From NCBI GenBank assembly GCA_037481835.1, contig JBBFKW010000004.1:78569-142568 (forward strand): a stretch of 64,000 nt of DNA, given 5' to 3'. Numbering within the stretch: position 1 is the first letter of the stretch; every line of letters begins with the position of its first letter. Both the position numbers and the translations under genes were made by a program. Source of the stretch: Desulfosoma sp. GTDB taxonomy: Bacteria > Desulfobacterota > Syntrophobacteria > Syntrophobacterales > DSM-9756. Under the pieces are notes generated by a model. The model saw nothing but the letters and a program-made list of their open reading frames with translations. It made no database searches and was not told the DNA's origin. Shown here piece after piece: positions 7,738-25,490 of the stretch.

Positions 7738-9744
7738 TCACCCTTTCGCCACGGAAGTGGGGGACGTGAGAAGGGGGTGGAGCTTCGTGAGGTCCTGCGT
7801 CCGCCCCAAGAGAATGACAACGTCCCCGGGCTTCAGGAGCATGTCCGGACCCGGATTGGGGCTCCATCCGTCTTCGCGCCGCACGGCCAAAACGGTCACC
7901 CCCCAGTTTTTCCTAAGGCCCAGCTCACCGATGTTTTTTCCCGCCAGGAGCGAACCCGGCGTCACACGCGTGGAACGCACCTCCATATCGGGGAGATCGC
8001 TCAGGATGTCGCACCACTGGATTGCCGGCAGCTGCCCCCCTTCCACCGACTGATACCCGTCGATCCGCACACGGGCGATGAGGGCCTCGATTTCTTCCCG
8101 GGGCACCAAATACTTGGTCAAGACCCGTGCGAAAATTTCGATGGATGTCTCCAATTCTTCCGGAATGACCTCGTTGGCACCCAGGGCCGTGAGCTTCTTG
8201 ACTTCGGACAAGAACCGGGTGCGCACGATGAGATACACCGCCGGGGCGGCGGCCCTCACAGCGGCCGTGATCCGCCGCACCATGGCGGGATCGGCCAAGG
8301 ACACGCACACGACCTTGGCGTCTTTGACGGACACATGTTCCAGAAGGGTCCCTTCCGAAGCATCGCCGAAGACGATGGGTTCCCCCTTTTTCTTTTCCTG
8401 CCGGACCGTCGCCGGGTTCATTTCCACAACGGCGTAAGGGATGCCGGCGGATTTGGCCGCTCGAGCGAGATTCCGCCCCACAGGACCGTAGCCCACGATG
8501 ACCAGATGGTTGGACAACGGCGGCAGGGTCTGGTCCTCTTTTTTCAACGACGGTGAGGAAAATCCCAAAAGAATCTTTTGAGGCAGAGGCCATCGGGAGG
8601 CTCCTTCGGCTGCTCGAGGGGCCACCGCGATGAGAAACGGGGTCATCATCATCGTCAAGGTGGACACGGCAAGGAAGAGGGGGACGTGATCCCCCACAAG
8701 GATTCCGTGGCCGATGCACACTGTGCACAAGACAAAGGAAAATTCCCCCACCTGAGCCAGGATCAGCCCGGTGTGCACCGCCATGCGCAGCGGGTAGCCC
8801 AGCGCGAGGACGACCAGGAGGCAGACGACGGCTTTGAGCCCAACGGCGAGGACGGAGAGCGACAGGACGGTCGCCAAGTGATGGACGACGAAGGAAAGGT
8901 TCAAGGTCATGCCCACGGAGACGAAAAACAAGCTGGTAAAGAGGTCTTTAAAGGGAAGCATTTGCGCCAGGGTCTGGTGGCTGTATTCGGACTCGGAAAG
9001 AACCAGGCCCGCAAGAAAAGCGCCCAACGACAAGGACAGCCCGGCGAACGACGTGATCCAGGCCACCCCGAAACAGAAAACCACCGCCGTCAGGAGAAAC
9101 ACCTCCCGACTGCGCGTCGCCGCCACGATGTGGAGCACCCGGGGAAGGACGTAGCGCTGGGTCAAGAAGACGACGAGGAAAATCCCCGCGGACTTAAGGG
9201 CGAGAATGCCCACGGCGCGGGAGAGGCTCTCGCCTGAGCCGCCCAACAGCGGGATGAGGAGCATCATAGGAACGACGGCCACGTCCTGGAACAAGAGGAT
9301 GCCAAGGCACATTTGCCCGTGAGGGCTTTCCAGTTCCATGCGGTCCTGAAGGGTCTTCAGTACGATGGCCGTGCTGCTCAACGCCACCATGAAGCCCATG
9401 GGCACGGCGAAGGATGCCCCGCGGAAAGCGAAGGTGGTAAGAGCCCACACGGCCGCCGTGGTGATGAGGACCTGCAAGCCGCCGCCGAGCATAACGATCC
9501 GCCGGATCCGGATAAGTTCTGAAAGGGAGAATTCCAACCCGATGGAAAAAAGAAGGAGCACCACTCCCAGTTCGGCGAGAAAGGAGACGTCCTCGGACGT
9601 CTTGACCAACCCCAACCCATGCGGGCCCGCAAGACACCCGGTGATGAGGAACCCAACGACGGGGGGAATTTTGACCCTATGGCATACCAGGATGACCCCG
9701 ACGGCCAAGGTCAAAACGATGAGCAGGTCAGCCAGCGTGTGCAT
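7738..9744 (-). CDS. CPA2 (KefC-like) cation:proton antiporter with TrkA-N and TrkA-C domains
   Basis: About 12 TM segments, LSSTAIV and GILLFQD motifs, VIVGYGPVG KTN domain; start taken at MHTLADLL. Confidence 0.9.
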   Translation of the reverse strand: MHTLADLLIVLTLAVGVILVCHRVKIPPVVGFLITGCLAGPHGLGLVKTSEDVSFLAELGVVLLLFSIGLEFSLSELIRIRRIVMLGGGLQVLITTAAVWALTTFAFRGASFAVPMGFMVALSSTAIVLKTLQDRMELESPHGQMCLGILLFQDVAVVPMMLLIPLLGGSGESLSRAVGILALKSAGIFLVVFLTQRYVLPRVLHIVAATRSREVFLLTAVVFCFGVAWITSFAGLSLSLGAFLAGLVLSESEYSHQTLAQMLPFKDLFTSLFFVSVGMTLNLSFVVHHLATVLSLSVLAVGLKAVVCLLVVLALGYPLRMAVHTGLILAQVGEFSFVLCTVCIGHGILVGDHVPLFLAVSTLTMMMTPFLIAVAPRAAEGASRWPLPQKILLGFSSPSLKKEDQTLPPLSNHLVIVGYGPVGRNLARAAKSAGIPYAVVEMNPATVRQEKKKGEPIVFGDASEGTLLEHVSVKDAKVVCVSLADPAMVRRITAAVRAAAPAVYLIVRTRFLSEVKKLTALGANEVIPEELETSIEIFARVLTKYLVPREEIEALIARVRIDGYQSVEGGQLPAIQWCDILSDLPDMEVRSTRVTPGSLLAGKNIGELGLRKNWGVTVLAVRREDGWSPNPGPDMLLKPGDVVILLGRTQDLTKLHPLLTSPTSVAKG

Positions 9745-9917
9745 GTTCTTCCTTGGATGTTCGTCTCGACGCGCACGTCTTGAACGACGTGCTCGCCTAT
9801 GACACCAGGATCGGCTGGGCGCGTCAACAAAAATGGGCTCGCTCCTTCCCTTCCACCCCACCCCGTCCCATAGACGCGTGTCCCTGGAAACCCGTGTTCC
9901 AATAAATCCCCAAATCC

Positions 9918-9950
9918 GCAGGTTGGGGTGAGCGCAGCGACCCCCAACAC
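9918..9950 (+). repeat. GTAG-type REP-like palindrome (GCAG variant)
   Basis: GCAGGTTGGGGTGAGCGCAGCGACCCCCAACAC; near-identical to the copies at 39697, 39838 and 47507. Confidence 0.75.
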
Positions 9951-10114
9951 ACTCCCCGAACGCCCCAGTCACCGCAGCGGGCCCCCGAAGCACGAAGCGC
10001 CAACCTGCAAGCGCCTCCGCCTCGACTTTCCCATGCACATGGGGTAAAGAGATCCTCAGCGTCCGAAGGAAGATCCGACGGGAACCGACCGTTTTCGGAA
10101 AGGATGTTCGGCCT

Positions 10115-11788
10115 ATGGAATGCACCATCGTCATTGCGGGCAGCGCCGGAGAAGGCATCCAAACCATCGGGGATGTTTTGGCCGATACCCTGGCCGCTCA
10201 AGGGTATGGGGTCTTCACGTGGCAGGAATACGAGTCGCGCATACGAGGCGGCCAAAATTCCTACACCATTCGGGTGAGCGAATCGCCCGTGAACGCCCCG
10301 ACCATGGAAGCCGACATTTTCCTGTTTCTTAATTCGGAGTCCTTGGAAAAATATCGCCCTCGCATCAAGCCGCACGCCATTCTTCTCGGCGAAACACCGG
10401 CCGGGGAAGACTCCCTTGTCGTTCCTTTTAAAGAGATGGCCCGATCCGTGCTCGGCCGATCCATCTATGCCAACACCATCGCCATGGGGGCCTTGACCGC
10501 GGTGCTCGGTGTAGAACAGGAAACCCTGGAAAGGGTCCTGGCCGAAGAGTTCGCCGCCAAAGGCGATGAGGTGGTCCGCGCCAATCACAAGGCCGCCGCT
10601 CTGGGTTTCGACCATGCCCATCGAGCCTGCCGGGACCGATGCCCATGGGCGTTTCCCAAGACGGAGAAGACCTATTACCTCATTTCGGGAAACGAAGCGC
10701 TGGCTCTGGGTGCCTTTCATGGGGGATGCCGATTCATCGCCGCCTATCCCATGACGCCGTCCACAGGCATCATCACGTTTTTGGCCAAGCACTGGGAAGA
10801 GACGGGCGTTTTTTGCGAACAGGCCGAAGACGAAATCGCCGCCGTCAACATGGCCTTGGGAGCTTCCTTTGCAGGGGCTCGTGCCATGACGGCCACATCC
10901 GGCGGCGGCTTCGCCCTCATGGTGGAAGCCATCAGCCTGTCGGGCATGACCGAAGTGCCTGTGGTCATCGTTCTGGCTCAGAGGCCCGGTCCCGCCACCG
11001 GACTTCCCACTCGGACCGCCCAAGGCGACTTGCTTTTTGCCGTCCATGCAGGGCATGGAGAGTTTCCCAAGGCGGTGCTGGCCGCCTCCGACGCCCAGGA
11101 CGCCTTCCATACCATGTGCCGCGCCTTTCACCTCGCGGACCAATTTCAAATCCCCGTCATCGTCCTGAGCGATCAGCTGCTCGCCGATTCCCGTTTCAGC
11201 GTGGAGAACTTCCACCTGGAATCGGCCGTGCGGCACTCTTTCGCCCCAGATCCTAATGATTTCCAGGAGTATAAACGGTACGCCTTCACCGAAACGGGGG
11301 TGTCGCCCCGCCTTTACCCCGGCCGGGGGCCCCACCTGGTCACCGCCGACAGCGACGAACACGACGAATGGGGACACATCACCGAGGACCTGGCCGTGAC
11401 GGCGCCTTCCATGCACGCGAAGCGGCTCAGAAAGCAGGTCTTCCTCCAACAAGAGATGCGTGCGCCCTTCTCATACCGGACGGAAGACGCCGAGGACATT
11501 TTCTGCACGTGGGGGTCCACCAAAGGAGCGGCCCTGGAGGCCGTGGACGCCCTGCGTCGAGAAGGGGCCCGGGTCGGGCTCATGCACTGGTCGGAACTGT
11601 GGCCGCCGCCTTCGGCATCCTTTCCCCGTAAGGCTCGGCTCTGGACGGTGGAAAACAACGGGACGGGCCAGTGGGCTTCCTTGATGGCCCTGGGCTACGG
11701 TCGGGGTGCGGAAAAACGCATCCTGCGAAGCGACGGCCTCCCCCTTACGGCAGACGACATTCGGAGGGCCTATCATGAGCTCGGTTGA
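10115..11788 (+). CDS. korA: 2-oxoacid:ferredoxin oxidoreductase alpha subunit (gamma-alpha fusion)
   Basis: IAGSAGEG, ESRIRGG, AYPMTP, QAEDEIAA, RPGPATGLPT motifs. Substrate not determinable. Confidence 0.9.
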   Translation: MECTIVIAGSAGEGIQTIGDVLADTLAAQGYGVFTWQEYESRIRGGQNSYTIRVSESPVNAPTMEADIFLFLNSESLEKYRPRIKPHAILLGETPAGEDSLVVPFKEMARSVLGRSIYANTIAMGALTAVLGVEQETLERVLAEEFAAKGDEVVRANHKAAALGFDHAHRACRDRCPWAFPKTEKTYYLISGNEALALGAFHGGCRFIAAYPMTPSTGIITFLAKHWEETGVFCEQAEDEIAAVNMALGASFAGARAMTATSGGGFALMVEAISLSGMTEVPVVIVLAQRPGPATGLPTRTAQGDLLFAVHAGHGEFPKAVLAASDAQDAFHTMCRAFHLADQFQIPVIVLSDQLLADSRFSVENFHLESAVRHSFAPDPNDFQEYKRYAFTETGVSPRLYPGRGPHLVTADSDEHDEWGHITEDLAVTAPSMHAKRLRKQVFLQQEMRAPFSYRTEDAEDIFCTWGSTKGAALEAVDALRREGARVGLMHWSELWPPPSASFPRKARLWTVENNGTGQWASLMALGYGRGAEKRILRSDGLPLTADDIRRAYHELG

Positions 11789-13927: not shown

Positions 13928-16456
13928 TCAGTTTTTTTCCGACGCGGTGGGCATGGTCCGCACATGCACATCCAGCTGGGGAAAGGCGATCTCGATCCCT
14001 CTTTCCTGGAACAGTCGGTGGATTTCAAACCGGATATCGGTTTCCACCTGAAGGCACACCGGCACCGTGGTCCACAGGCGCAGCCGGAACATCAAGGCAC
14101 TGTCCCCGAAATCCACGAAGAGCACGCTGGGCTCCGGTTGCTTATACACCAAAGGATGGGCTTCGGCGATCTCCAAAAGGGTGCGGCGCACAAGGTCCAC
14201 ATCCGAACCGTAAGCCACCCCCACGTTGATGTTCCGACGGATCCTTAGATCTTTGAAACTCCAGTTCAGAACCCGACCGCTGATGAATTCGGAGTTGGGA
14301 ATGATCAAGGACGCGTTGTCCACGGTTTGCACGATGGTCGATCGCACGGTGATCCGGCGCACTTCGCCCCACGTGCCGTCGATTTCGATGGAATCCCCCA
14401 CCTGGATGGGCCTTTCAAAAAGTAGGATCAAGCCGCTGATGAAGTTGTTGAAGATGTTTTGGAGCCCGAAGCCCAGGCCTACGCCCAGGGCGCCGAAGGC
14501 GACCGTGAGGGAAGTGCCGCTGAACCCCAGGGCATTGAGCGCAACAAGAATGCCCATGAACCACAAAACATAGCCGGCGATGGAGACGACCGATTCCTGC
14601 AGGCCCCTTTCCAGCCCGCTGTGTCGCAAAAGGCGGTTTTTCACCAGACGCTTCAGCCATCTAGTGCCCACATGGGTCACGGCCACGATGACGGAGGCGT
14701 AAATGAGGCCCAGGACACGAAAATTGAGTCCGCCGAGGGGCAAAGGCGTGTTGAGCAAGTGGAAGAAGGCGACGATGAGCGCCTGCTTGGCGCCCCAGGC
14801 CAAGAGGAGCCCGAGGATTCCGGCGAAAAACCACACCCCCCATAGGGTTTTCACCGTGAGCCAGCGGAAGGAACTCCTGGTTTCTTCTTCGCCCTCCGGA
14901 GCGAAAGTGGCCGCCGTGTGCACGGACATGTCCCATTCCACAAGGCTTCTGAAAAAGAGAAACAACCACAGCGCCACCACCAGGGTTCGGGCCCACCCCA
15001 CATACCAAAAAGTCGCCAAGAGCCCGTAGCCGGCCAGTTCCAGGAGCAGTCCCGCCAGAGCGATCCCGTATCCCAAGACCATGAAAAGGTTCAGAATCCA
15101 GGGTTTGCCTTCCATCCACGAAGGGGGCGTCTCCGAAGCCTTTCGCCTCAGTTCCCGCCAGAACGCCACGCTCCAGGCCAGAAACGCCGTCTCCAGCGCC
15201 AATCGGTAGAGCAACAGTAAAGCGCTGGTCCGCCCCAGGCTTTCCTGAAGCACCACGTAGGCGAGGAGCAGCCATCGGCCGGCCGAAACCATGAGACGGA
15301 CCCGCCGGGCCGCAAAAGCAAAGCGTTCGGGCCGAAAGGTTTCCTTGAAGGCGCGCAGGAAATGGATGACCCAAGAAGTAAGCAGCCACACGACGAGGAC
15401 CTGGCACAGGCCCCTCAAGAAAACGGAGGTGTCGTAAAGGTCTCGAGCCAGGGTATAGCCGAAGACGAAAAGGGTCGCCCCCGCCAAGGGCAGGGAGTGA
15501 GTGAGCAGGCTCAGGGTGAGAAAATACCAAGGCTTCACCGAGCGATTGCAGCGATCGAGGAGCGCCTCGCTCAGGCGCCGAAACCGAAAGAACAGCCATT
15601 CCAGAATGGCGAAAACGAGGATCGAGGTGACGAGAAGCACCCCGCCGGCTTTCCAGAGCGCCCTGCCGAGTTCCGCCCACACCTTGGGCTGAAGACCCTG
15701 GCTGATGAGCAGGGCCGCGTTGTCCAGGTCGCGCCGCACTTCCGTCGGGTCCAAAACGGCCAAGGGGTTTCGACTCCGACGGAACAGGTCTTCCCGCTTG
15801 CGTTCGGCGATGCGCTTGCTGAGGCGATCCAGCAGGGCTGTCCCTTCATCGCGCACCGCGCTCCAGTCCTCGATGAGTTTCTGGTAGATGTCCTGGAACT
15901 CTCCCAGCCGTTTTTCTTTCTGCTTGAAGAGCTCGTTGGCTTCCTTGAGCTGTCCGGCCAAGGTGCGGATGATGGGAAGATCGTCCCGGCGCGTCTTCAA
16001 CGTCTCCATCCGGGTCTGGTTGGCGGCCCGCTGCTCCGCCAGAGCACCCAGCTTTGCGGCGATCTCCGTATGCTTGTCCTGAAACTCCTTCACCCGGGCG
16101 GCTGCGCCGTCTACCGTCTGCTTGAGCGATCCCAGGGCCTTGTCCAGATCTTCCAAGGCGGGGGAGGAGAGGGACATGAGGTTGCCGACGGCGGAAAGCT
16201 GGAGCCGCGCCGCATTGAGTTCCCCCGCCCAGGGGGTTTGCCACCGCTTGAGTTCCTCGAGGCTCTTCCCCAGCTGTTCCAGGTCCTGCTTTTCCGCCTG
16301 AATGGCCTTTTCCAAGGACGAAGACAATTCGGCGTACTGATCCTGGCCGTCGGTTCCCAAAACCTCGGAAGTTTGCGCCGACACGAAGCACGGCGCGACA
16401 AGAAACCCCAGGTAAACGACGACCAGGAGGCTCACTGTTCTCGGCTTGAAAAACAT
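13928..16456 (-). CDS. Large mechanosensitive channel (MscS/MscK-like) with periplasmic coiled coil
   Basis: GVGLGFGLQNIFNNFISGLILLFERPIQVGD; AAGGAG RBS before MFFKPR. Confidence 0.92.
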   Translation of the reverse strand: MFFKPRTVSLLVVVYLGFLVAPCFVSAQTSEVLGTDGQDQYAELSSSLEKAIQAEKQDLEQLGKSLEELKRWQTPWAGELNAARLQLSAVGNLMSLSSPALEDLDKALGSLKQTVDGAAARVKEFQDKHTEIAAKLGALAEQRAANQTRMETLKTRRDDLPIIRTLAGQLKEANELFKQKEKRLGEFQDIYQKLIEDWSAVRDEGTALLDRLSKRIAERKREDLFRRSRNPLAVLDPTEVRRDLDNAALLISQGLQPKVWAELGRALWKAGGVLLVTSILVFAILEWLFFRFRRLSEALLDRCNRSVKPWYFLTLSLLTHSLPLAGATLFVFGYTLARDLYDTSVFLRGLCQVLVVWLLTSWVIHFLRAFKETFRPERFAFAARRVRLMVSAGRWLLLAYVVLQESLGRTSALLLLYRLALETAFLAWSVAFWRELRRKASETPPSWMEGKPWILNLFMVLGYGIALAGLLLELAGYGLLATFWYVGWARTLVVALWLFLFFRSLVEWDMSVHTAATFAPEGEEETRSSFRWLTVKTLWGVWFFAGILGLLLAWGAKQALIVAFFHLLNTPLPLGGLNFRVLGLIYASVIVAVTHVGTRWLKRLVKNRLLRHSGLERGLQESVVSIAGYVLWFMGILVALNALGFSGTSLTVAFGALGVGLGFGLQNIFNNFISGLILLFERPIQVGDSIEIDGTWGEVRRITVRSTIVQTVDNASLIIPNSEFISGRVLNWSFKDLRIRRNINVGVAYGSDVDLVRRTLLEIAEAHPLVYKQPEPSVLFVDFGDSALMFRLRLWTTVPVCLQVETDIRFEIHRLFQERGIEIAFPQLDVHVRTMPTASEKN

Positions 16457-16528
16457 GGCTCTCCTTTCTCGGTCCCCCCGGCTTTGCCGGTCCGAGCCCC
16501 GCACGGGCTCGGATTTGTCAAACGGGCC

Positions 16529-17264: not shown

Positions 17265-18152
17265 TCAGTACACCTTGAGTGTGCCGTGGCGTTTGCCGAG
17301 GACCTCCAGCGTATCGTTGATGATGACGAAGGCGTGGGGGTCGATGCGAAAAATCGCCTCCTTGAGCTTGGGCAGCTCCGTCAGGGTCGTCACGGTGAGG
17401 ATCACGTCCCGATCTTCTCCCGAATAGCCCCCCGTGCCCTTGAGGAAGGTCACCCCGCGCCGGATTCCGTGAAGAATGAAATCCGCCGTTTCCTGCGCCT
17501 TCGAGGAAACGATCAAGACCATCTTTCGGCGGTTGAACCCCACCATGACGGCATCTACCACACGGCTGCTTGCGTACACGTAAACGATGGAATACAGGGC
17601 CTTCTCAAGGCCGAAGAAATAGCCGCCGATGCCGAGCACGAGGGCGTTTGCCGCCATGTAGGTGATGCCGACGCGAATCCCCCAGCGCGTGTTCAGATAG
17701 ACGGCCAAGATATCGAGCCCTCCGGCGGAGCCCAGGGACCGGAGCATGATACCGCCGCCCACGCCGCACCAGACCCCGGCAAGCACTGCGGCCAAAAGGG
17801 GATCGCTCACCGTGACCGACGGGACCTTGACCCAGGAGGCCGCCAGGGAAAAGAACACCATGCCGAACAGGGTGTATCCCATAAAACGCCGGCTTACGGA
17901 AACCCAGCCCAGGACCATGAGCGGGATGTTGCTCAAAAGATAAAAATGCCCCACATCCACGGAAGGGTAAAGGTAATGCAGGATGACAGCCACCCCGACA
18001 ACGCCGCCGCTCAGGAGCTTTTGCGGGATGAGCACGGCGTTCATGCCGAGCACATAGATGAGGCTTCCCAGAACAATCAAGGACACGTTGACGCCGAGGG
18101 ACTTCCAGTCCCACGCTGCCCGGAGGCGCCATCGCTGTTTCCGTAAATCCAT
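17265..18152 (-). CDS. YitT-family membrane protein
   Basis: SGGVVG, GSAGGLDI, RGVT..G.GGYSG, IDPHAFV motifs. Confidence 0.88.
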   Translation of the reverse strand: MDLRKQRWRLRAAWDWKSLGVNVSLIVLGSLIYVLGMNAVLIPQKLLSGGVVGVAVILHYLYPSVDVGHFYLLSNIPLMVLGWVSVSRRFMGYTLFGMVFFSLAASWVKVPSVTVSDPLLAAVLAGVWCGVGGGIMLRSLGSAGGLDILAVYLNTRWGIRVGITYMAANALVLGIGGYFFGLEKALYSIVYVYASSRVVDAVMVGFNRRKMVLIVSSKAQETADFILHGIRRGVTFLKGTGGYSGEDRDVILTVTTLTELPKLKEAIFRIDPHAFVIINDTLEVLGKRHGTLKVY

Positions 18153-18247: not shown

Positions 18248-19810
18248 CTATGAAGCCGCAGCCGCCACGGTTTTGCAATAGATCATTTTATGATCGTCCG
18301 GGGCGTAAAAATCGGGAAGGGAGGCGACCCGAACATAACCGGCATGAAGGTAAAATCGCCGCGTCGGCTCGTATAAGGGTCGAGAGGACGTTTCCACATA
18401 AACTTTTCGGCCTCCGGCGCGCCTTATGGCCTCTTCCGTGGCATGGAGCAGGACCTTTCCGACGCCTCGGCCTTGCCATGCCGGGTCCACCACGATCCAG
18501 TACAGGTCGAATCTCCCGGCCGTCCCTGAAATGGGCCCGTAACACGTATAGCCGACGACGCGGCCGTCGTGTTCCGCCACGATGAAATAATAGCCCGAGG
18601 CGGCCGCCCCCAGGGTGAGATTCTGCCGGGCCAGGTCCCGGGCGACGGCGATTTCTTCCGCATTGAAAAAACCCGTCTCGGCCGCGATCTGCTCGACGGC
18701 ATCCATATCCGACGGCTTCAGATGGGTTCTCAGGGCGAGACCCGGCAGTGGCATGGCGTTGAGGGAGAAGCTCGTTTCCTGTTCGGAAAGAAAGTGCGTT
18801 TCAGAAAGCTTTCGGTCTGACGGTCGCGCTGCCGCGGCATCTTCCACGAGTCGATACACCACTGCGTCCATGTCCAACCCGGCTTGGCGCGCCGCGGCCA
18901 TGAAGCCCGCATCGGGCGAAAGGCACGGGTTGGCATTGATTTCCAAAACCCACGGCCGGCCGTCTTCGTCCACACGAAAATCGATCCGCGCGTAGCCCCG
19001 TAGGCCGAAAAGGTCCCAGCATCGCCGCGCGAGCGCCGAAAGCCGCTCCGCAAGCGCTCCATCTTCCCGGGCCGCCAAAAAAGACCTCACCGTGTGCCTT
19101 TCGGCAAAGGAGCCCTCCGCCCACTTGGCCTCGTAGTCCACAATGCGGTGCCGCTCCGGCTCGAACCCCTCGAAGCGCATCTCCGCCACCGGCAGCACCT
19201 CCACCCCTCCGGGCCGAGCGAGCAGCGCCAGATTGAATTCGCGCCCGTCGATGAAGCGCTCCGCAAAAAACCCTGCCGGTCCGAACCGGTTCCTCGCCCG
19301 GCGGACGGCCCGGTCCCACGCCTCGGGATCGGCCATTGAAACCACCGCCTCCTGGTCGATCCCCACCGAGGCATCTTCCCACAAGGGCTTGACGATGAGG
19401 AGGGTATCCGGGGCCCACGGCGGAGGCGGCCCTTCCGGCTCAAACCACTCCGGCGTAGGCAGACCCCACGCGGTGAGCCACTTTTTGGTGAGCACTTTAT
19501 GGGATGTGCAAAAGACGGCTTCCGTGGGGCATCCCGTGTAAGGGATCCCCTCGACGTCCAAAAGAGCGGGAGCCGTATGGGCCAGCCGCCCGGACCCTTC
19601 CACTGTTTCCACGAGGTTGACGACCACGTCGGGGCCCACGTGACGAAGGGTTCGGCGCATGCCCCCAAGATCCGAATGGAAGGGAAGAAAGATGACATCC
19701 CAGCCGAGCCGCTCCAGAGCCTCACCGATGCATCGGGCCTGGAACAGGACGTCCTGTTCGTCGGGCGGCGCTTCGGGAGGGACGGCGGAATGGAGCACGA
19801 CGGCACGCAT
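18248..19810 (-). CDS. D-Ala-D-Ala-ligase-like ATP-grasp enzyme fused to a C-terminal GNAT acetyltransferase
   Basis: IVKP..EDASVGI, ERFIDGREF, YARIDFR, LEINANP; then DLYWIVVDPAWQGRGVG and FYLHAGY (GNAT). AAGGA RBS before ATG 19810. Confidence 0.88.
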   Translation of the reverse strand: MRAVVLHSAVPPEAPPDEQDVLFQARCIGEALERLGWDVIFLPFHSDLGGMRRTLRHVGPDVVVNLVETVEGSGRLAHTAPALLDVEGIPYTGCPTEAVFCTSHKVLTKKWLTAWGLPTPEWFEPEGPPPPWAPDTLLIVKPLWEDASVGIDQEAVVSMADPEAWDRAVRRARNRFGPAGFFAERFIDGREFNLALLARPGGVEVLPVAEMRFEGFEPERHRIVDYEAKWAEGSFAERHTVRSFLAAREDGALAERLSALARRCWDLFGLRGYARIDFRVDEDGRPWVLEINANPCLSPDAGFMAAARQAGLDMDAVVYRLVEDAAAARPSDRKLSETHFLSEQETSFSLNAMPLPGLALRTHLKPSDMDAVEQIAAETGFFNAEEIAVARDLARQNLTLGAAASGYYFIVAEHDGRVVGYTCYGPISGTAGRFDLYWIVVDPAWQGRGVGKVLLHATEEAIRRAGGRKVYVETSSRPLYEPTRRFYLHAGYVRVASLPDFYAPDDHKMIYCKTVAAAAS

Positions 19811-19831
19811 CAGCTTGTCCTTTCTCAATGC

Positions 19832-19939
19832 CCCCTCACCCTGCCCTCTCCCCCAAAGGGGGAGAGGGATGTTGCGCACCAGGCAAGCCTGCAACCTTAA
19901 TGACCCTCACCCTGCCCTCTCCCCCAAAGGGGGAGAGGG
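19832..19939 (+). repeat. Two direct copies of CCCTCACCCTGCCCTCTCCCCCAAAGGGGGAGAGGG palindromic element
   Basis: Copies start at 19833 and 19904 (71-bp period); the same element seeds the array at 43366-44121. Confidence 0.85.
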
Positions 19940-19955
19940 AAACATCCGGGCACAT

Positions 19956-19981
19956 GGTCTTCCGTTTCGATGGGAATGACG
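19956..19981 (-). repeat. Degenerate CGTC-type REP-like element
   Basis: Reverse complement reads CGTCATTCCCATCGAAACGGAAGACC; related to 47393. Confidence 0.45.
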
Positions 19982-20135
19982 GAAAAATCATGGACCTCCG
20001 CCTCTTCTCTTGATGGGTGTAGGGGGCAAAACAGGATCTGTCGGCCCCCCTTTATAAGGGGAGCGGCACATGCAGGTTCTCGCGTCTCCGCCTCTCGAGG
20101 GTGAGAACGGGAAATTCGCCTTCATTCATGGTTCT

Positions 20136-21113
20136 CTAAGGCGCACACCTTCTGATGGCTTCCTCCAGGATCGTTTCGATGAGCTCCTGGTAGGACATGC
20201 CCACGAGGGTGCACAAGATGGGCAGGTCGGAATGATGGGGATGGAGGCCGGCCAAGGGGTTGGCTTCGAGAAAATGGGGCCGGCCAAAGGCATCGGAACG
20301 CACATCGATACGGCCGGCATCGCGACATCCCAAGACCTTCCAGGCTTCCACGGCGATGCGCTCGGCTTGGCGCGCCTCCTCATCGTCGACCAGCCGATAA
20401 AGGACGCGCTCTTCGCACCATTCCTTGTTGGCGTAGGAATAGACCTCGGCATCGGCGTTGTCCCGAAGGATCACTTCCATCACCCCTACGGGTCGCGCAC
20501 GACGGCCGGTCCCCAAAATTCCCACGGTGAATTCACGCCCCGGCAGAAAGGTTTCCACCAAAACGGGCTGCCGAAACGCGGCCAGGAGCTCTGCGCAGAC
20601 CGCCGCCAGTTCTTGCGAAGTGTGCACTTTGGATGCCGGCGTGATGCCTTTGCCCGTCCCTTCCCGCACCGGCTTGGCGAAAACCGGCCACGGGAGGTCG
20701 AGCTTTTTCAGGTCCTCCCCATGGTCGATGAGGGCGAAGGCCGGCGTGGGCAGCCCGGCGTCGCGCACCATGCGTTTGGCCACCGATTTATCCAAGGTGA
20801 CGCACAAGCCCACGGGATCGGAAAACGTGTAGGGGATGCCGTATGCGTCCAGGAGCGCCGGGACCTGGGCTTCGCGGCCCGAGCCCCGAAGCCCTTCGGC
20901 GATGTTGAACACCAGGTCCCACCGGTGCCCCGAAATCAGCCGTTCCATGAGGTCCTGCAGCCGCCCGATGCGGTCGGTTTCATGCCCCAAGGCTCGGATG
21001 GCCTCTTCCAGGGCGTCCACCGTGTCTCCCCGGTCGAATTCGGCGGTCTCTTCTTCCGAATACCCCTCGGCGAGGTAGACCTCCCGAAGATCATAGGTCA
21101 GCCCGATTCTCAT
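20136..21113 (-). CDS. D-Ala-D-Ala-ligase-like ATP-grasp enzyme
   Basis: VFNIAEG, REAQVPA, FAKPVREGTGKGI, ETFLPGREFTVG, GRIDVR, FLEANP; lacks the canonical Ddl N-terminal GGxSxE motif. Confidence 0.88.
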   Translation of the reverse strand: MRIGLTYDLREVYLAEGYSEEETAEFDRGDTVDALEEAIRALGHETDRIGRLQDLMERLISGHRWDLVFNIAEGLRGSGREAQVPALLDAYGIPYTFSDPVGLCVTLDKSVAKRMVRDAGLPTPAFALIDHGEDLKKLDLPWPVFAKPVREGTGKGITPASKVHTSQELAAVCAELLAAFRQPVLVETFLPGREFTVGILGTGRRARPVGVMEVILRDNADAEVYSYANKEWCEERVLYRLVDDEEARQAERIAVEAWKVLGCRDAGRIDVRSDAFGRPHFLEANPLAGLHPHHSDLPILCTLVGMSYQELIETILEEAIRRCAP

Positions 21114-21124
21114 GGGCCCCTCCC

Positions 21125-22462
21125 CTAAAACGCCCCCCGCGCCACTCTGTGGGGTTCCGCGGGCGTCTCAAAAGCTTTGGGGTACCGAAAGAGGCGGTGT
21201 TCGTAGTTTCGAAGCACCAGGTCATCCCCATCCACACCTTGCACGTAGTCTGGAAGAAGCGGGATTTTGCCGCCGCCTCCCGGGGCGTCCACGACGTAGG
21301 AAGGAACCGCATAACCGGAGGTGTGCCCGCGCAGGCCGTCCATAATTTCCAGGCCGCGGCGGATAGTCGTGCGAAAATGGGCCGATCCGGAAATGGGATC
21401 GCATTGATAAAGGTAATACGGGCGCACACGAAGTCGCATGAGCCCTTGGAAGAGATCCTTCATGGTCTGGATATCGTCGTTGATGCCTTTAAGGAGCACC
21501 GTCTGGCTTCCCAAGGGGATGCCCGCATCGGCCAGCCGGGCGCACGCTTCGGCCGTCTCGGGGGTGAGCTCGTCCGGATGGGTGAAGTGGAGGCTCATCC
21601 ACAACGGATGAAAGCGGCGCAGGAGCCGGACCAAGTCCCGGGTGATGCGCTGGGGCAAAACCGCCGGCACCTTGGTGCCGATACGGATCACTTCCACATG
21701 GCGGATGGCTCTGAGCCGCTCCAAGAGCCAGCCCAGGGCGTCGTCGGCCAGCGTCAAGGGGTCGCCGCCGGAGATGAGCACATCGCGGACGGCGGGGGTT
21801 GCTTCGATGTAGCCCAGAGCCTTTTCCCACTGCCGGCGGCTTGGATGCCCGCCCGCCCCGTGCCGTCCCACGACACGCGACCGGGTGCAGTATCGGCAAT
21901 ACGTGGAACAAAAGCCTGTGACGAGAAACAGCACGCGGTCCGGGTAGCGGTGCACGAGGCCCGGCACCGGGGAATCCTTGTCTTCTCCCAAGGGATCGTC
22001 CGACTCTCCGGGGCTTCGCATCCATTCATCGGGAAGCGGCACCACGGATCGGCGCAACGGCTGCGAGGGATTGGTCTCGTCGAGCAAGCTCGCGTAATAG
22101 GGCGTAATGGCCGCGGGGAAGCGCGATGCCGTGTCGCGCAGGGCTTCCTTTTCCGCCTCCGTCAGACGGAGGATACGGCTTAGGCCGTGAAGCGATCGGA
22201 ACCGATGCTGCACCTGCCAATGCCAGTCGTTCCAAAGAGAGAGGCTGAGGTGGGGAAAATGCTTTTTCTTGAAGGCTTTTGAGAGGTTGCCCATGGGCAT
22301 GGCGGCGGACTTTCGGCCCGAAAGGCCCCGGGACCGCCGCGGGGAAGGTGATGACTCTTCGGGGTCTGAGCCCGGAGGTTCGCTTGGAGGCTCCTCCGTC
22401 TCCGAGGAGTCTTCGCACAGAGAAGATGCGTCCTGTCGCCATGTTCGATCGGTGTTTTCCAT
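21125..22462 (-). CDS. kamA: KamA-family radical SAM/PLP enzyme (lysine 2,3-aminomutase-like)
   Basis: HRYPDR, CSTYCRYC, SGGDPL, YLYQCD, VVDAPGGGGKIP. Confidence 0.9.
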   Translation of the reverse strand: MENTDRTWRQDASSLCEDSSETEEPPSEPPGSDPEESSPSPRRSRGLSGRKSAAMPMGNLSKAFKKKHFPHLSLSLWNDWHWQVQHRFRSLHGLSRILRLTEAEKEALRDTASRFPAAITPYYASLLDETNPSQPLRRSVVPLPDEWMRSPGESDDPLGEDKDSPVPGLVHRYPDRVLFLVTGFCSTYCRYCTRSRVVGRHGAGGHPSRRQWEKALGYIEATPAVRDVLISGGDPLTLADDALGWLLERLRAIRHVEVIRIGTKVPAVLPQRITRDLVRLLRRFHPLWMSLHFTHPDELTPETAEACARLADAGIPLGSQTVLLKGINDDIQTMKDLFQGLMRLRVRPYYLYQCDPISGSAHFRTTIRRGLEIMDGLRGHTSGYAVPSYVVDAPGGGGKIPLLPDYVQGVDGDDLVLRNYEHRLFRYPKAFETPAEPHRVARGAF

Positions 22463-22778: not shown

Positions 22779-25490
22779 TCAGTTGTGGGCTTCGGCCCAA
22801 TTTTTCCCCCACCCCATGTCCACCACCAAGGGCACACGCAAACGGAGCACCCCTTCCATCCGATCTTTGACCATCTGCCGCACCTCGTCCAGTTCGTCCT
22901 CCGGCACCTCGAAGACGAGCTCGTCGTGCACCTGCAACAACATGGCGGTCGTCAGGCCTCGAAATCGAATCTCCCGGTCAATATCGATCATGGCCTTCTT
23001 AATGACGTCCGCCGCCGTCCCTTGGATGGTCGTGTTGACGGCAAGCCGCTCTCCTTGCTGGCGCACCGTGCGGTTTCGGCTTTGCAGTTCGGGAATGAAT
23101 CGGCGCCGTCCCAAGAGGGTTTCCGCATACCCCCGCTTTTGCGCCTCTGCGACCACCTGCTCGATCCAGCGCTTTACCCCCTGATACTTTTCAAAATACC
23201 GCTCGATGGCCGCCTTGGCGCTGGTCTGGTTGATCTTGAGCTGCTTCGCCAGGCCGTACGGGCCCATGCCGTAAATGATCCCGAAATTGATGGTCTTGGC
23301 ATGGCGGCGCATTTCCGCCGTGACTTCATGGGGCGCCACACCGAACATTTCGGCGGCCGTGCGCCGGTGGATGTCGTCCCCCGCCATGAAGGCGGCCAAG
23401 AGCCGCTCATCGCCGCTGTAGTGGGCAAAGATGCGCAGTTCGATCTGGGAATAATCGGCGGCGAGAAGGACATGGCCCTCATCGGCGATGAACGCTTCGC
23501 GGATGCGGCGGCCTTCCTCGCCTCGCACGGGAATGTTTTGCAGGTTGGGCTCGGAGCTGCTCAGCCGGCCCGTGGCCGTGACGGTTTGGTTGTAACTGGT
23601 GTGGATGCGCCCTGTTTCAGGGTGGACCAAGAGGGGGAGCGCATCCACATAGGTGTTTTTCAGCTTGGCCAGGCTGCGGTAAGCCACGATGTGCTCGGCG
23701 ATGGGATGGTGTGCCGCCAGCTCTTCCAGGACGCTCATGTCCGTCGAAGGCCCCGTCTTGGTCTTTTTAATCACCGGAAGCTGCAACTTGCCGAAGAGGA
23801 CGTCCCTGAGCTGGACGGGCGATTGAATATTAAATGGAGCGCCGGCGATCTCGTAGATGGTCCGCTCTTCTTTGCGCAGCCCTTCTTCAAAAGCTTCCGA
23901 AAGTTCCTTGAGTTTGGCCGTATCCACCCGGACCCCTCGCAGTTCCATACGCGCCAGAACATCGATGAGGGGCCTTTCCAGGGTGTCCATGAGGGTCGTC
24001 AGGCCTGCCTCTTCGAGCTTCCTCCGGAGAATCGGAACGAGCCGAAAGGTACTTTCCGCATCGCTGCAGGCATAGGCGGCGGCGTCGGCGATGGGCACCC
24101 GGGAAAAGGGCACTTCCTTGGCTCCGGATCCGGCCACGTCCCGATAGGCCGCCTTGGGTTCCCCCAGATGCTCGGCCACGATGCGTTCGAGCCGGTGAGA
24201 GGGGTTCCCCGGATCCAGGAGGTAACTCGCCACCATGGTGTCGAAGTCGATCCCGTTGAGTTCCACGCCGTGCCGCTTCAGGACGACCCATTCGTACTTG
24301 ATGTTTTGTCCGACCTTTTTGGGGGTGTCCCCTTCCAGCACGGGCCTGAGCCCCTCCAAAACCCGGGACATAGCCAGTTGCGCTTCACGCTCGGGCCCCT
24401 CGTGGCCCACGGGAATGTAGGCCGCCTCATGCTCCCGCCAACTCAGCGCCACCCCCACGATTCGGGCGCGCATGGCATCCTGGGAGGTGGTTTCCAAATC
24501 GATGGAAAGAACGGGCGCCTGTCGGACTTCTTCCAGGATGTCCCGGAAGGCGGCCTCGGAGAGCACGATGCGGTCGCGTCGTTTCGGCGCATCCCTTTCG
24601 GGGGCGGCCTCCGCCGATGGCGCCTCCCGGGACAGGTCAGCCAGAAAGCGACGCAATCCCAAACGTTCGTAGAGCTCGGCGAGAGCCTCCGTATGGGGGG
24701 ATCCCCTGCGGCACTGAAGCACGTCCAGGTTCACGGGGGCATCGTCCCGCAGGCTCACCAGTTTCCTGGAAAGTACGGCCGCATCCTTTCCCGCTTCCAC
24801 CTTTTTGCGCACCGCCGCGCTGGGAATCTCGTCCAGCCGCCTGAAAAGCTCGTCCAGGGTTTCAAAGCGACGCAAAAGTTCTTCGGCGGTCTTTTCCCCT
24901 ACGCCGGCGATCCCCGGCACATTGTCGGAACTGTCTCCCATGAGCGCCAGGAGATCCCGCACCTGGTCCGGCCGAACCCCGAGGCGTCGGACGACTTCTT
25001 CGGCGGTGAACCATTTATCCTTTTGGGGATCCCACTGGAGCACCCAAGGCTCTTGCACCAGCTGGTGGAGGTCCTTGTCCCCGGAGACAATGACCACGGG
25101 GATTCCCGCTTCCTTAGCCCGCCGAGCCAGGGTGGCGATGACGTCGTCCGCCTCGTAGCCGGGCACTTCCAGGGACGGAATCCCCAGGAGGTCCACCATC
25201 TGTTTGATGATGGGCACCTGCACCACCAGGTCTTCCGGCATGCGGTCCCGCGTGGCCTTGTATTCCGGGTAGGCGGCGTGGCGAAAGGTGGGACCGGGCG
25301 GGTCGTAGACGACGCACAAGAGTTCCGGCTGCTTGTCTTTGAGCACTTTGTGGAGCATCTGGTGGAAGCCGAAGACGGCTTGAGTGGGAGTGCCGTCGGG
25401 TGCCGTGAGACGCCGGCCCATGGCGTAAAAGGCCCGATACATGTAGGAACTGGCATCGATGAGGTAAAGGATCGGCTTTTTCTCCGTCAT
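22779..25490 (-). CDS. polA: DNA polymerase I
   Basis: 5'-3' exonuclease (EADD, SGDKD), DLETT, TGRLSS, DYSQIELR, KTINFGIIYG, QVHDEL. Confidence 0.98.
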   Translation of the reverse strand: MTEKKPILYLIDASSYMYRAFYAMGRRLTAPDGTPTQAVFGFHQMLHKVLKDKQPELLCVVYDPPGPTFRHAAYPEYKATRDRMPEDLVVQVPIIKQMVDLLGIPSLEVPGYEADDVIATLARRAKEAGIPVVIVSGDKDLHQLVQEPWVLQWDPQKDKWFTAEEVVRRLGVRPDQVRDLLALMGDSSDNVPGIAGVGEKTAEELLRRFETLDELFRRLDEIPSAAVRKKVEAGKDAAVLSRKLVSLRDDAPVNLDVLQCRRGSPHTEALAELYERLGLRRFLADLSREAPSAEAAPERDAPKRRDRIVLSEAAFRDILEEVRQAPVLSIDLETTSQDAMRARIVGVALSWREHEAAYIPVGHEGPEREAQLAMSRVLEGLRPVLEGDTPKKVGQNIKYEWVVLKRHGVELNGIDFDTMVASYLLDPGNPSHRLERIVAEHLGEPKAAYRDVAGSGAKEVPFSRVPIADAAAYACSDAESTFRLVPILRRKLEEAGLTTLMDTLERPLIDVLARMELRGVRVDTAKLKELSEAFEEGLRKEERTIYEIAGAPFNIQSPVQLRDVLFGKLQLPVIKKTKTGPSTDMSVLEELAAHHPIAEHIVAYRSLAKLKNTYVDALPLLVHPETGRIHTSYNQTVTATGRLSSSEPNLQNIPVRGEEGRRIREAFIADEGHVLLAADYSQIELRIFAHYSGDERLLAAFMAGDDIHRRTAAEMFGVAPHEVTAEMRRHAKTINFGIIYGMGPYGLAKQLKINQTSAKAAIERYFEKYQGVKRWIEQVVAEAQKRGYAETLLGRRRFIPELQSRNRTVRQQGERLAVNTTIQGTAADVIKKAMIDIDREIRFRGLTTAMLLQVHDELVFEVPEDELDEVRQMVKDRMEGVLRLRVPLVVDMGWGKNWAEAHN

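Follow-up and report, generated by a model that had tools for sequence, protein, structure and literature searches.

What would a bacterium make with an aminomutase, two ligases built like D-alanine–D-alanine ligase (Ddl) and an acetyltransferase that are encoded side by side? The question is raised by three genes on contig JBBFKW010000004.1 of Desulfosoma sp. (Desulfobacterota), within a stretch of 64,000 nucleotides which was analyzed as a whole and is called the window here. The genes encode a KamA-family radical S-adenosylmethionine (SAM)/pyridoxal phosphate (PLP) aminomutase, predicted to be a lysine 2,3-aminomutase, a Ddl-fold ATP-grasp ligase (AG1), and a second ligase of this kind (AG2) fused to a GNAT acetyltransferase domain. 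On the evidence assembled below, we consider it fairly probable that this cassette forms a biosynthetic unit complete in itself, whose product is an N-acetylated amide containing beta-lysine, a pseudo-di- or tripeptide that would be kept in the cytoplasm. The original prediction, which was made from the DNA letters alone, had named no characterized product for such a gene set, and among the papers listed by full-text literature searches there was likewise none on the combination of aminomutase, ATP-grasp, and GNAT genes.

The three open reading frames (ORFs) are co-oriented on the minus strand, as had been claimed. The kamA gene (21125–22462, minus strand, 445 residues) was assigned from Pfam, the model TIGR00238, and an alignment with the solved chain 2a5h. 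AG1 (20136–21113, minus strand, 325 residues) starts 11 nucleotides past the kamA stop (gap 21114–21124) and was assigned from PF07478, NF002378, and its AlphaFold2 model as an amide ligase other than a D-Ala-D-Ala ligase. The third ORF combines PF07478 with three GNAT families of Pfam. In this fusion gene (18248–19813, minus strand, 521 residues), the ligase domain AG2 occupies residues 1–335 (18809–19813, minus strand; PF07478, NF002378, and alignment with Ddl and AG1), while the acetyltransferase domain spans approximately residues 358–516 (18266–18742, minus strand; Acetyltransf_1/7/10 and the solved chain 2r7h).

The first step of the proposed pathway is assigned to the aminomutase. KamA carries the Pfam domains Radical_SAM and LAM_C and passes the subfamily model TIGR00238 (357.1 bits against a cut-off of 199.2). 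Its best equivalog model is TIGR03820, that of the lysine 2,3-aminomutase AblA, with 480.7 bits, under the cut-off of 525.4; the models for glutamate aminomutase (417.8 bits), arginine aminomutase (387.1 bits), and EpmB (254.5 bits, failing the cut-off of 369.3) score lower. The same ranking was obtained for 10 of 10 tested cassette KamAs, which all score highest on TIGR03820 (433–522 bits), ahead of the models for glutamate and arginine aminomutase. Residues 69–429 align with the solved lysine 2,3-aminomutase of Clostridium (2a5h, E 2e-129), and the cluster cysteines CxxxCxxC as well as the motifs HRYPDR, YQCD, and VVDAPGGGGK, to which the original prediction had pointed, are identical between the two. 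Furthermore, all of the 10 cassette-linked KamAs examined from other genomes and all of 63 close homologues retain C185, C189, C192, R176, D355, D392, and K399. We take R176 (HRYPDR) to be the Arg that binds the substrate carboxylate, D355 (YQCD) and D392 (VVDA) to be the acidic residues that bind the epsilon-ammonium group of lysine, and K399 to be the PLP lysine. The lysine-specific residues ascribed to KamA are thus in place, and they suggest that the enzyme turns L-lysine into beta-lysine.

In AG1 and in the ligase part of AG2, Pfam recognizes the C-terminal Ddl domain PF07478 alone. On the Ddl model NF002378 the two score 151.7 and 100.7 bits, respectively, both under the cut-off of 243, compared with 358.9 bits for the genome's own true Ddl, which is encoded on another contig. 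Neither ligase was thought to have the canonical N-terminus of Ddl. This stands as far as the sequence is concerned. In an alignment with the genome's Ddl, the Gly-rich N-terminal loop is missing from both, the His of the Ddl motif HG..GEDG is replaced by Glu in both, and the Tyr that follows a conserved Lys in Ddl becomes Glu in AG1 and Trp in AG2. The statement on the N-terminus does not extend to the fold, as the AlphaFold2 model of AG1 (predicted local distance difference test score, pLDDT, 96.8) superposes on Ddl over its full length, with a Foldseek template modeling (TM) score of about 0.8 at 24–28% identity and, by VIA-align, Z 31.2 and a root-mean-square deviation (rmsd) of 2.5 over 296 aligned residues. 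AG1 and AG2 are approximately 29% identical to each other, and the ESM Atlas gave generic clusters labeled "D-alanine–D-alanine ligase family" only.

Nine residues are nevertheless invariant throughout the orthologue alignment of Ddl, AG1, and AG2, namely K101, K105, K143, E179, K219, R259, D261, E275, and N277 in the numbering of the genome's Ddl. In AG2 itself, R275, D277, E290, and N292 are invariant across 25 AG2-GNAT proteins. Because the catalytic residues are conserved, AG1 and AG2 would be active amide ligases, presumably with substrates other than D-alanine; the positions that differ from Ddl are, we assume, those lining its two D-Ala sites. The view that the ligases are catalytically intact and yet distinct from Ddl is therefore borne out by the nine residues together with the failed cut-offs of NF002378.

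The acetyltransferase domain makes up the C-terminal ~160 residues of the fusion protein and has kept an acetyl-CoA-type motif, QGRGVGK (Q-G-R-G-x-G-K), in agreement with its proposed function. Its nearest solved chain is 2r7h (E 1.2e-34), a structural-genomics entry that its depositors called "putative D-alanine N-acetyltransferase", a name without a tested function. An analogy had been drawn with AblAB, in which a KamA is likewise paired with a GNAT. The pairing itself is found here, but the acetyltransferase lies outside the AblB family: on TIGR03827 (cut-off 205.1 bits) the window GNAT reaches 9.8 bits and the best protein of the genome 20.1 bits, so that no AblB is detected in this genome.

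In other genomes, an orthologue of the GNAT domain is joined to a second activity. Proteins of approximately 753 residues, present in at least four sampled genomes and in three loci of metagenome-assembled genomes (MAGs), combine a middle part of the histone-deacetylase family (Hist_deacetyl) with a C-terminal orthologous GNAT that is 46–47% identical. These deacetylase-GNAT proteins adjoin the cassette ligases (L013:7282–9543, L014:1970–4228, L015:6138–8399, and L003:9495–11228), and the partner would strip or recycle the acetyl group in those organisms. A homologue from Elusimicrobia (L006:1410–3155, 581 residues) has a weak N-terminal GNAT match (E 6e-7) and lacks the C-terminal GNAT. No orthologue of the deacetylase was found in the genome of the window, where general family members only were matched, at 34–39% identity over part of the domain.

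Do these genes belong together? A neighborhood survey was conducted on 301 genomes of the phylum of the window, which were searched with AG1 (E up to 1e-40), KamA (1e-60), and AG2-GNAT (1e-30) and gave matches in 103, 175, and 100 genomes, respectively. A comparison by hand took in the 59 AG1 places of 47% identity or more, leaving aside one partial second hit and 44 rows at or below 43% identity. KamA was found on the same contig within ~3 kb in 50 of the 59 places, and AG2 within ~1.5 kb in 54. Many of the rows of lower identity are linked as well, for example in a locus with the order KamA, AG1, AG2-GNAT (L016), and in another family (L017), AG1 is followed by three regulator genes and then by KamA and AG2. 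Local additions were also observed: a GCS2-family carboxylate-amine ligase gene follows a fused AG1-AG2 in L022 (G045:C9), and an arginase-family gene lies directly upstream of kamA in L019 (G002:C2).

The arrangement is not confined to this phylum. A scan of species-representative genomes returned 10 loci, in five of which KamA stands beside the ligases (Elusimicrobia, Marinimicrobia, Syntrophaceae, Thermodesulfobacteriota, and Planctomyces); two others are a contig of 3.9 kb that carries AG1 and AG2 alone and a single match of 32 residues. Among 201 sampled genomes of Planctomycetota, 23 have AG1, at up to 64% identity (G385:C649:6040–7011), a value equal to the best match within the window's phylum outside the window's own order, which hints that the cassette may have moved laterally between phyla. 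As the arrangement is conserved across phyla, it lies far beyond what chance would produce. The survey thus found the gene set to be conserved together, to recur in other phyla, and to be tied further by natural fusions.

Several of these fusions came to light in a profile-free search with AG1 across 1.84 billion representatives, which returned 13,918 proteins with E values of 0.001 or less, 856 of them at 1e-30. Among the best 150 AG1 representatives, 37 are at least 560 residues long and contain two or more matched stretches, and a scan of 18 representatives of odd length revealed seven with two Ddl C-domains. One protein (P0121) is a true AG1-AG2 fusion whose second half is 43% identical to AG2 of the window, while another (P0140) is a different double ligase. 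KamA and AG1 are united in a protein of 746 residues (P0137). In P0135, AG1 is joined to a CxxCxxCC domain (PF03692), and in the Planctomyces locus a PF03692 protein has its own gene, located between those for KamA and AG1; P0243 contains leucine-rich repeats. All relatives listed for the window protein, at least 120, have its AG2-GNAT architecture, and in other genomes AG2 and GNAT are adjoining separate genes. L009 and G078 have a shorter, two-gene variant, in which KamA and AG2-GNAT are present and AG1 is missing. Since the fusions form a chain, KamA-AG1, AG1-AG2, and AG2-GNAT, they suggest the order in which the activities may act, and AG1 and AG2 probably work as a pair.

The following pathway can be proposed. 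L-lysine would first be converted into beta-lysine by KamA. AG1 and AG2 would then contribute one amide bond each by way of an acyl-phosphate, using the chemistry of Ddl on other substrates. The GNAT fused to AG2 would place an acetyl group from acetyl-CoA onto a free amine, and where the deacetylase is present, this group might be removed or recycled. A small-molecule product is favored because ORF clustering of 31 loci revealed no further conserved partner of the cassette, except for sigma-54 activators in six of them, and because Ngg of the NAGGN pathway, described below, offers a precedent. The four product classes that had been put forward, namely a compatible solute, a polyamine conjugate, a cell-wall modification, and a protein modification, are narrowed to some extent, with a cytoplasmic small molecule favored and both the cell-wall product and a protein modification of the EF-P type weakened. 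As to the role of the product, a compatible solute or stress protectant is a guess, made by analogy with N-epsilon-acetyl-beta-lysine and N-acetylglutaminylglutamine amide (NAGGN); it is the weakest step of the argument.

Several observations weigh against the proposed beta-lysine amide pathway. The 10 tested cassette KamAs, like that of the window, remain under the TIGR03820 equivalog cut-off, and for this reason the cassette enzymes stand apart from the proven lysine 2,3-aminomutases; in our reading, they constitute a separate clade of lysine 2,3-aminomutases. AG1 has no adjoining KamA in nine of the 59 places. Three of these are in fragmented assemblies, while the other six come from one family with the order sigma-54 activator, AG1, AG2, M20 peptidase, and major facilitator superfamily (MFS) transporter (L018, G012:C67). 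Likewise, three of the 10 representative loci, all MAGs (L003, L004, and L010, at ~8001–11230), have AG2 followed by the deacetylase-GNAT gene, with no KamA or AG1 within 8 kb. Given these loci, the ligases can apparently work without an adjoining aminomutase, and the MAG loci may represent a related pathway with a different amino building block. The pairing of AG1 with AG2 (residues 1–335) by complex prediction scored 0.33 against 0.00 for the best control, with runs agreeing in at least 40% of contacts and a partner pLDDT of at least 84. Of 157 solved complexes, 116 reached the mark used, as did two of 215 mismatched pairs; with a score of 0.60 or lower, only 18 of those 157 reached it, along with both of the passing mismatches. 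The prediction lends the pairing weak support, and the score may reflect the likeness of the two proteins to Ddl, since Ddl homodimers are solved; the natural fusions are the better evidence. Finally, the sole link to osmotic or heat stress is a gene for a MscK-like channel three genes downstream, a neighbor that does not recur in the other loci, so that this hint is local to the window.

Beside the MAG pair in L003, consisting of AG2 and the deacetylase-GNAT gene, lies an ATP-binding cassette (ABC) transporter with a PBP_like_2 binding protein.

A further feature of the cassette is the N-terminus of the aminomutase. Cassette-type KamAs have 50–100 additional N-terminal residues compared with the clostridial enzyme. 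In the window protein, this extension comprises approximately residues 1–57 (22292–22462, minus strand) and is predicted to be disordered (pLDDT 33–45 for residues 1–50), as delimited by pLDDT and the alignment of homologues. The same alignment reveals two tandem Glu-Pro-Pro motifs at residues 24–31 (nucleotides 22370–22393, minus strand). Across 63 sequences, P25 and P26 are invariant and E24 is nearly so. The pattern [E/K/R]-P-P-[S/G/D/A/N/C] occurs in 108 of 111 close homologues with a tail of at least 45 residues, compared with 8% of shuffled N-termini, and the three remaining homologues carry near variants instead. Among 25 cassette-linked KamA frames with the core anchor, 23 show a looser form of the pattern, which is missing from the two most divergent cassette types; the single KamA-AG1 fusion seen (n = 1) has a short tail without the motif. 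A purine-rich stretch just before ATG 22462 is in line with a start of KamA at this codon, where the gene caller picked Met55 instead.

The Glu-Pro-Pro motif may allow the ligases to dock, or it may cause a pause at the prolines to which EF-P responds. A third idea, that the tail serves as an amino-group carrier similar to LysW, was rejected by argument, as KamA needs the free alpha-amine for PLP and retains both of the residues that hold a free epsilon-amine. A far-reaching form of the proposal is conceivable, although doubtful on balance: the four activities would form a physical assembly held together by the Glu-Pro-Pro motif of the KamA tail, dispensable in the KamA-AG1 fusion, and would make an N-acetyl-beta-lysyl peptide that is a major cytoplasmic solute or protectant of bacteria in many phyla; the partner of the histone deacetylase (HDAC) type would cycle the acetyl group of this peptide. 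In a bolder variant, the Pro-Pro motif would act as an EF-P-dependent translational pause that couples the supply of beta-lysine to the beta-lysylated state of EF-P.

Among the rival explanations, protein or peptide modification survives best, although we consider it improbable. Here, a side chain or terminus of a protein would receive beta-lysine or another residue from the ligases, in the manner of EpmA/EpmB with EF-P or of RimK with ribosomal protein S6, and the GNAT and the deacetylase would act on protein lysines. The fold is indeed shared with ATP-grasp enzymes that act on proteins or peptides, namely LysX/ArgX, which work with LysW (Z 25.3), RimK (Z 23.0), and PsnB (Z 18.3); the folds next to AG1 after Ddl also include L-amino-acid ligases (Z ~21–22) and PylC (Z 18.4). 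A GNAT combined with a deacetylase of the HDAC type is a typical protein-acetylation pair, such as AcuA/AcuC, and in other genomes the two are fused, as described above; the conserved motif on the disordered KamA tail could itself serve as a handle or substrate. However, the closest relatives of AG1 and AG2 in both fold and sequence are the Ddl enzymes, which act on small molecules, and no candidate target gene recurs beside the cassette in the 31 loci.

The same genome also holds other genes that could serve EF-P. A second, shorter KamA paralogue (G000:C1:177495–178568, L002; 357 residues) passes the KamA subfamily model only and no equivalog, and an EpmA/GenX-like gene (G000:C10:110996–111862, L038/L039) matches its model in two pieces of one frame with 318 bits in sum against a cut-off of 286.9. 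The two may form a pair for the beta-lysylation of EF-P; they are not adjacent to each other, and no obvious efp gene was seen nearby in 14 kb read by eye. Because this separate EpmA-like gene and the second KamA paralogue are present, a modification of the EF-P type by the cassette is weakened.

The aminomutase might also use a substrate other than free L-lysine, such as another diamino acid or a bound lysine, in which case the product would not be a derivative of beta-lysine. All cassette KamAs are under the curated cut-off, and their clade has an N-terminal extension of its own, as this reading would have it. We give it a slim chance, as both acidic residues presumed to hold the epsilon-ammonium group and the carboxylate Arg are invariant, and each of the 11 proteins tested scores higher on the lysine model than on those for glutamate and arginine.

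Polymer synthesis, in which the two ligases would make oligomers or polymers of beta-lysine or a nitrogen store resembling cyanophycin and the GNAT would cap the chain, appears very unlikely. A pair of paralogous ligases is reminiscent of cyanophycin synthetase with its two ligase sites, to which there is a weak sequence match (E 3e-4), and the 31 loci contain no conserved exporter. The ligases, however, have no primer-binding or additional domain, and the two-gene variant without AG1 suits a stepwise addition better. Cell-wall chemistry, with AG1 and AG2 as variant D-Ala-D-X ligases or as enzymes that add a residue to peptidoglycan precursors, is scarcely credible: no family comes closer than Ddl in sequence or in fold, and the depositors' name for 2r7h mentions D-alanine, but the Ddl cut-offs are failed, a true ddl elsewhere in the genome weakens any such product, the positions presumed to line the D-Ala sites are altered in a family-specific manner, and the genes are linked to KamA instead of to mur or fts genes.

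The surroundings of the beta-lysine amide cassette, as read from family scans, confirm that no mur or fts genes are nearby. On the minus strand, the gene order is polA (22779–25490), which is the upstream neighbor of kamA, then kamA, AG1, a spacer, AG2-GNAT, YitT/DUF2179, TerC, and the MscK-like mechanosensitive channel (13928–16504, 858 residues). The N-terminal region of the MscK-like protein has weak matches to coiled-coil proteins (SMC, EzrA). ORF clustering of the 31 loci detected no recurrence of the YitT/TerC/MscK-like neighborhood among the other loci.

The spacer between AG1 and AG2-GNAT (322 bp, 19814–20135, strand not assigned) was read directly from the sequence, as were the two copies of a palindromic repeat of 34 nucleotides within it (19833–19866 and 19904–19937, minus strand). 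This G+C-rich repeat has 14 copies in the genome at no more than four mismatches, often paired, and looks like an intergenic element of the repetitive extragenic palindromic (REP) type. The ORF list runs AG2-GNAT back to TTG 19894 and through both repeats, giving 548 residues; the REP-like repeats in the spacer thus inflate the ORF call, which is overlong. The start is placed at ATG 19813 (521 residues), because the part upstream is the repeat-bearing spacer and a twin protein in the database has 520 residues.

Searches for other signals gave little. A simple scan found no sigma-70-like promoter, terminator-like sites occurred at the level of shuffled sequence, and no sigma-54-like site was found upstream of kamA. 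No Rfam family reached its threshold in the window; a match to the viral stem-loop RF04305 inside the YitT gene (17820–17867, minus strand; 26.4 bits, where the gathering score is 38; E 0.014) was taken as chance. The PADLOC defence models gave zero matches for the three cassette proteins. The DNA of the window recurs in hot-spring and sediment metagenomes, which has no bearing on function.

The cassette deserves attention for its distribution alone, with AG1 in about one third of the sampled Desulfobacterota (103/301) and about one tenth of the sampled Planctomycetota (23/201). Public annotation describes the parts merely as "KamA family", "D-alanine–D-alanine ligase family", and "GNAT family", and caution is advised against labeling AG1 and AG2 as cell-wall ligases or as ligases related to vancomycin resistance. 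If the cassette does make a defined amide of beta-lysine, a widespread bacterial metabolite would be absent from current metabolic maps, and two new substrate specificities would be added to the well-studied Ddl fold.

How does the cassette compare with known systems? AblA and AblB are similar in that a lysine 2,3-aminomutase of the KamA type is encoded together with a GNAT, and their product in methanogens and some bacteria is a cytoplasmic acetylated beta-lysine. The cassette differs by the addition of two ATP-grasp ligases, by a GNAT that is not AblB, and by a KamA that scores under the AblA cut-off. In EpmB and EpmA, a KamA-family enzyme also makes beta-lysine, which an ATP-dependent enzyme couples to the amine of a lysine. 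EpmA, however, is a paralogue of lysyl-tRNA synthetase and not an ATP-grasp enzyme, and the cassette KamA fails the EpmB cut-off by the scores given above. With Ddl and the Van ligases, AG1 shares the fold over its whole length (TM ~0.8, Z 31) and the residues for ATP/Mg and the acyl-phosphate; it differs in its low identity (24–28%), the failed cut-offs, the changed substrate positions, and a context free of wall genes.

Beside AblA/AblB, the closest parallels in logic are found in two pathways that assemble amides in a comparable manner. In the NAGGN pathway, Ngg is a bifunctional acetyltransferase and peptide ligase that forms the osmolyte precursor N-acetylglutaminylglutamine without a ribosome or nonribosomal peptide synthetase (PMC8070244). 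As in AG2-GNAT, acetyltransferase and amide ligase thus reside on one polypeptide, a likeness of architecture and logic only. The NAGGN operon has an accompanying peptidase gene, comparable to the deacetylase or M20 peptidase that accompanies the cassette in some genomes. NAGGN synthesis differs, however, in its building block, which is glutamine, in having no aminomutase, and in using the amidotransferase AsnO in place of a second ligase. In the case of PylB and PylC, a radical-SAM enzyme rearranges lysine, after which an ATP-dependent ATP-grasp ligase couples the rearranged amino acid with a second amine (PMC8225853). PylC has a fold in common with AG1 (4ffl, Z 18.4, rmsd 3.2, 246 aligned residues), which is a general likeness only: the PylC model TIGR03909 has 12 matches in the genome at E up to 10, and neither AG1 nor AG2 is one of them. 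In addition, the cassette has no PylD and includes a GNAT, and its aminomutase is of the KamA type, with a PLP-dependent amino shift, and not of the PylB type. The cassette is therefore taken to belong to none of the AblA/AblB, NAGGN, and PylB/PylC systems, while it shares a part of its chemistry or architecture with each of them.

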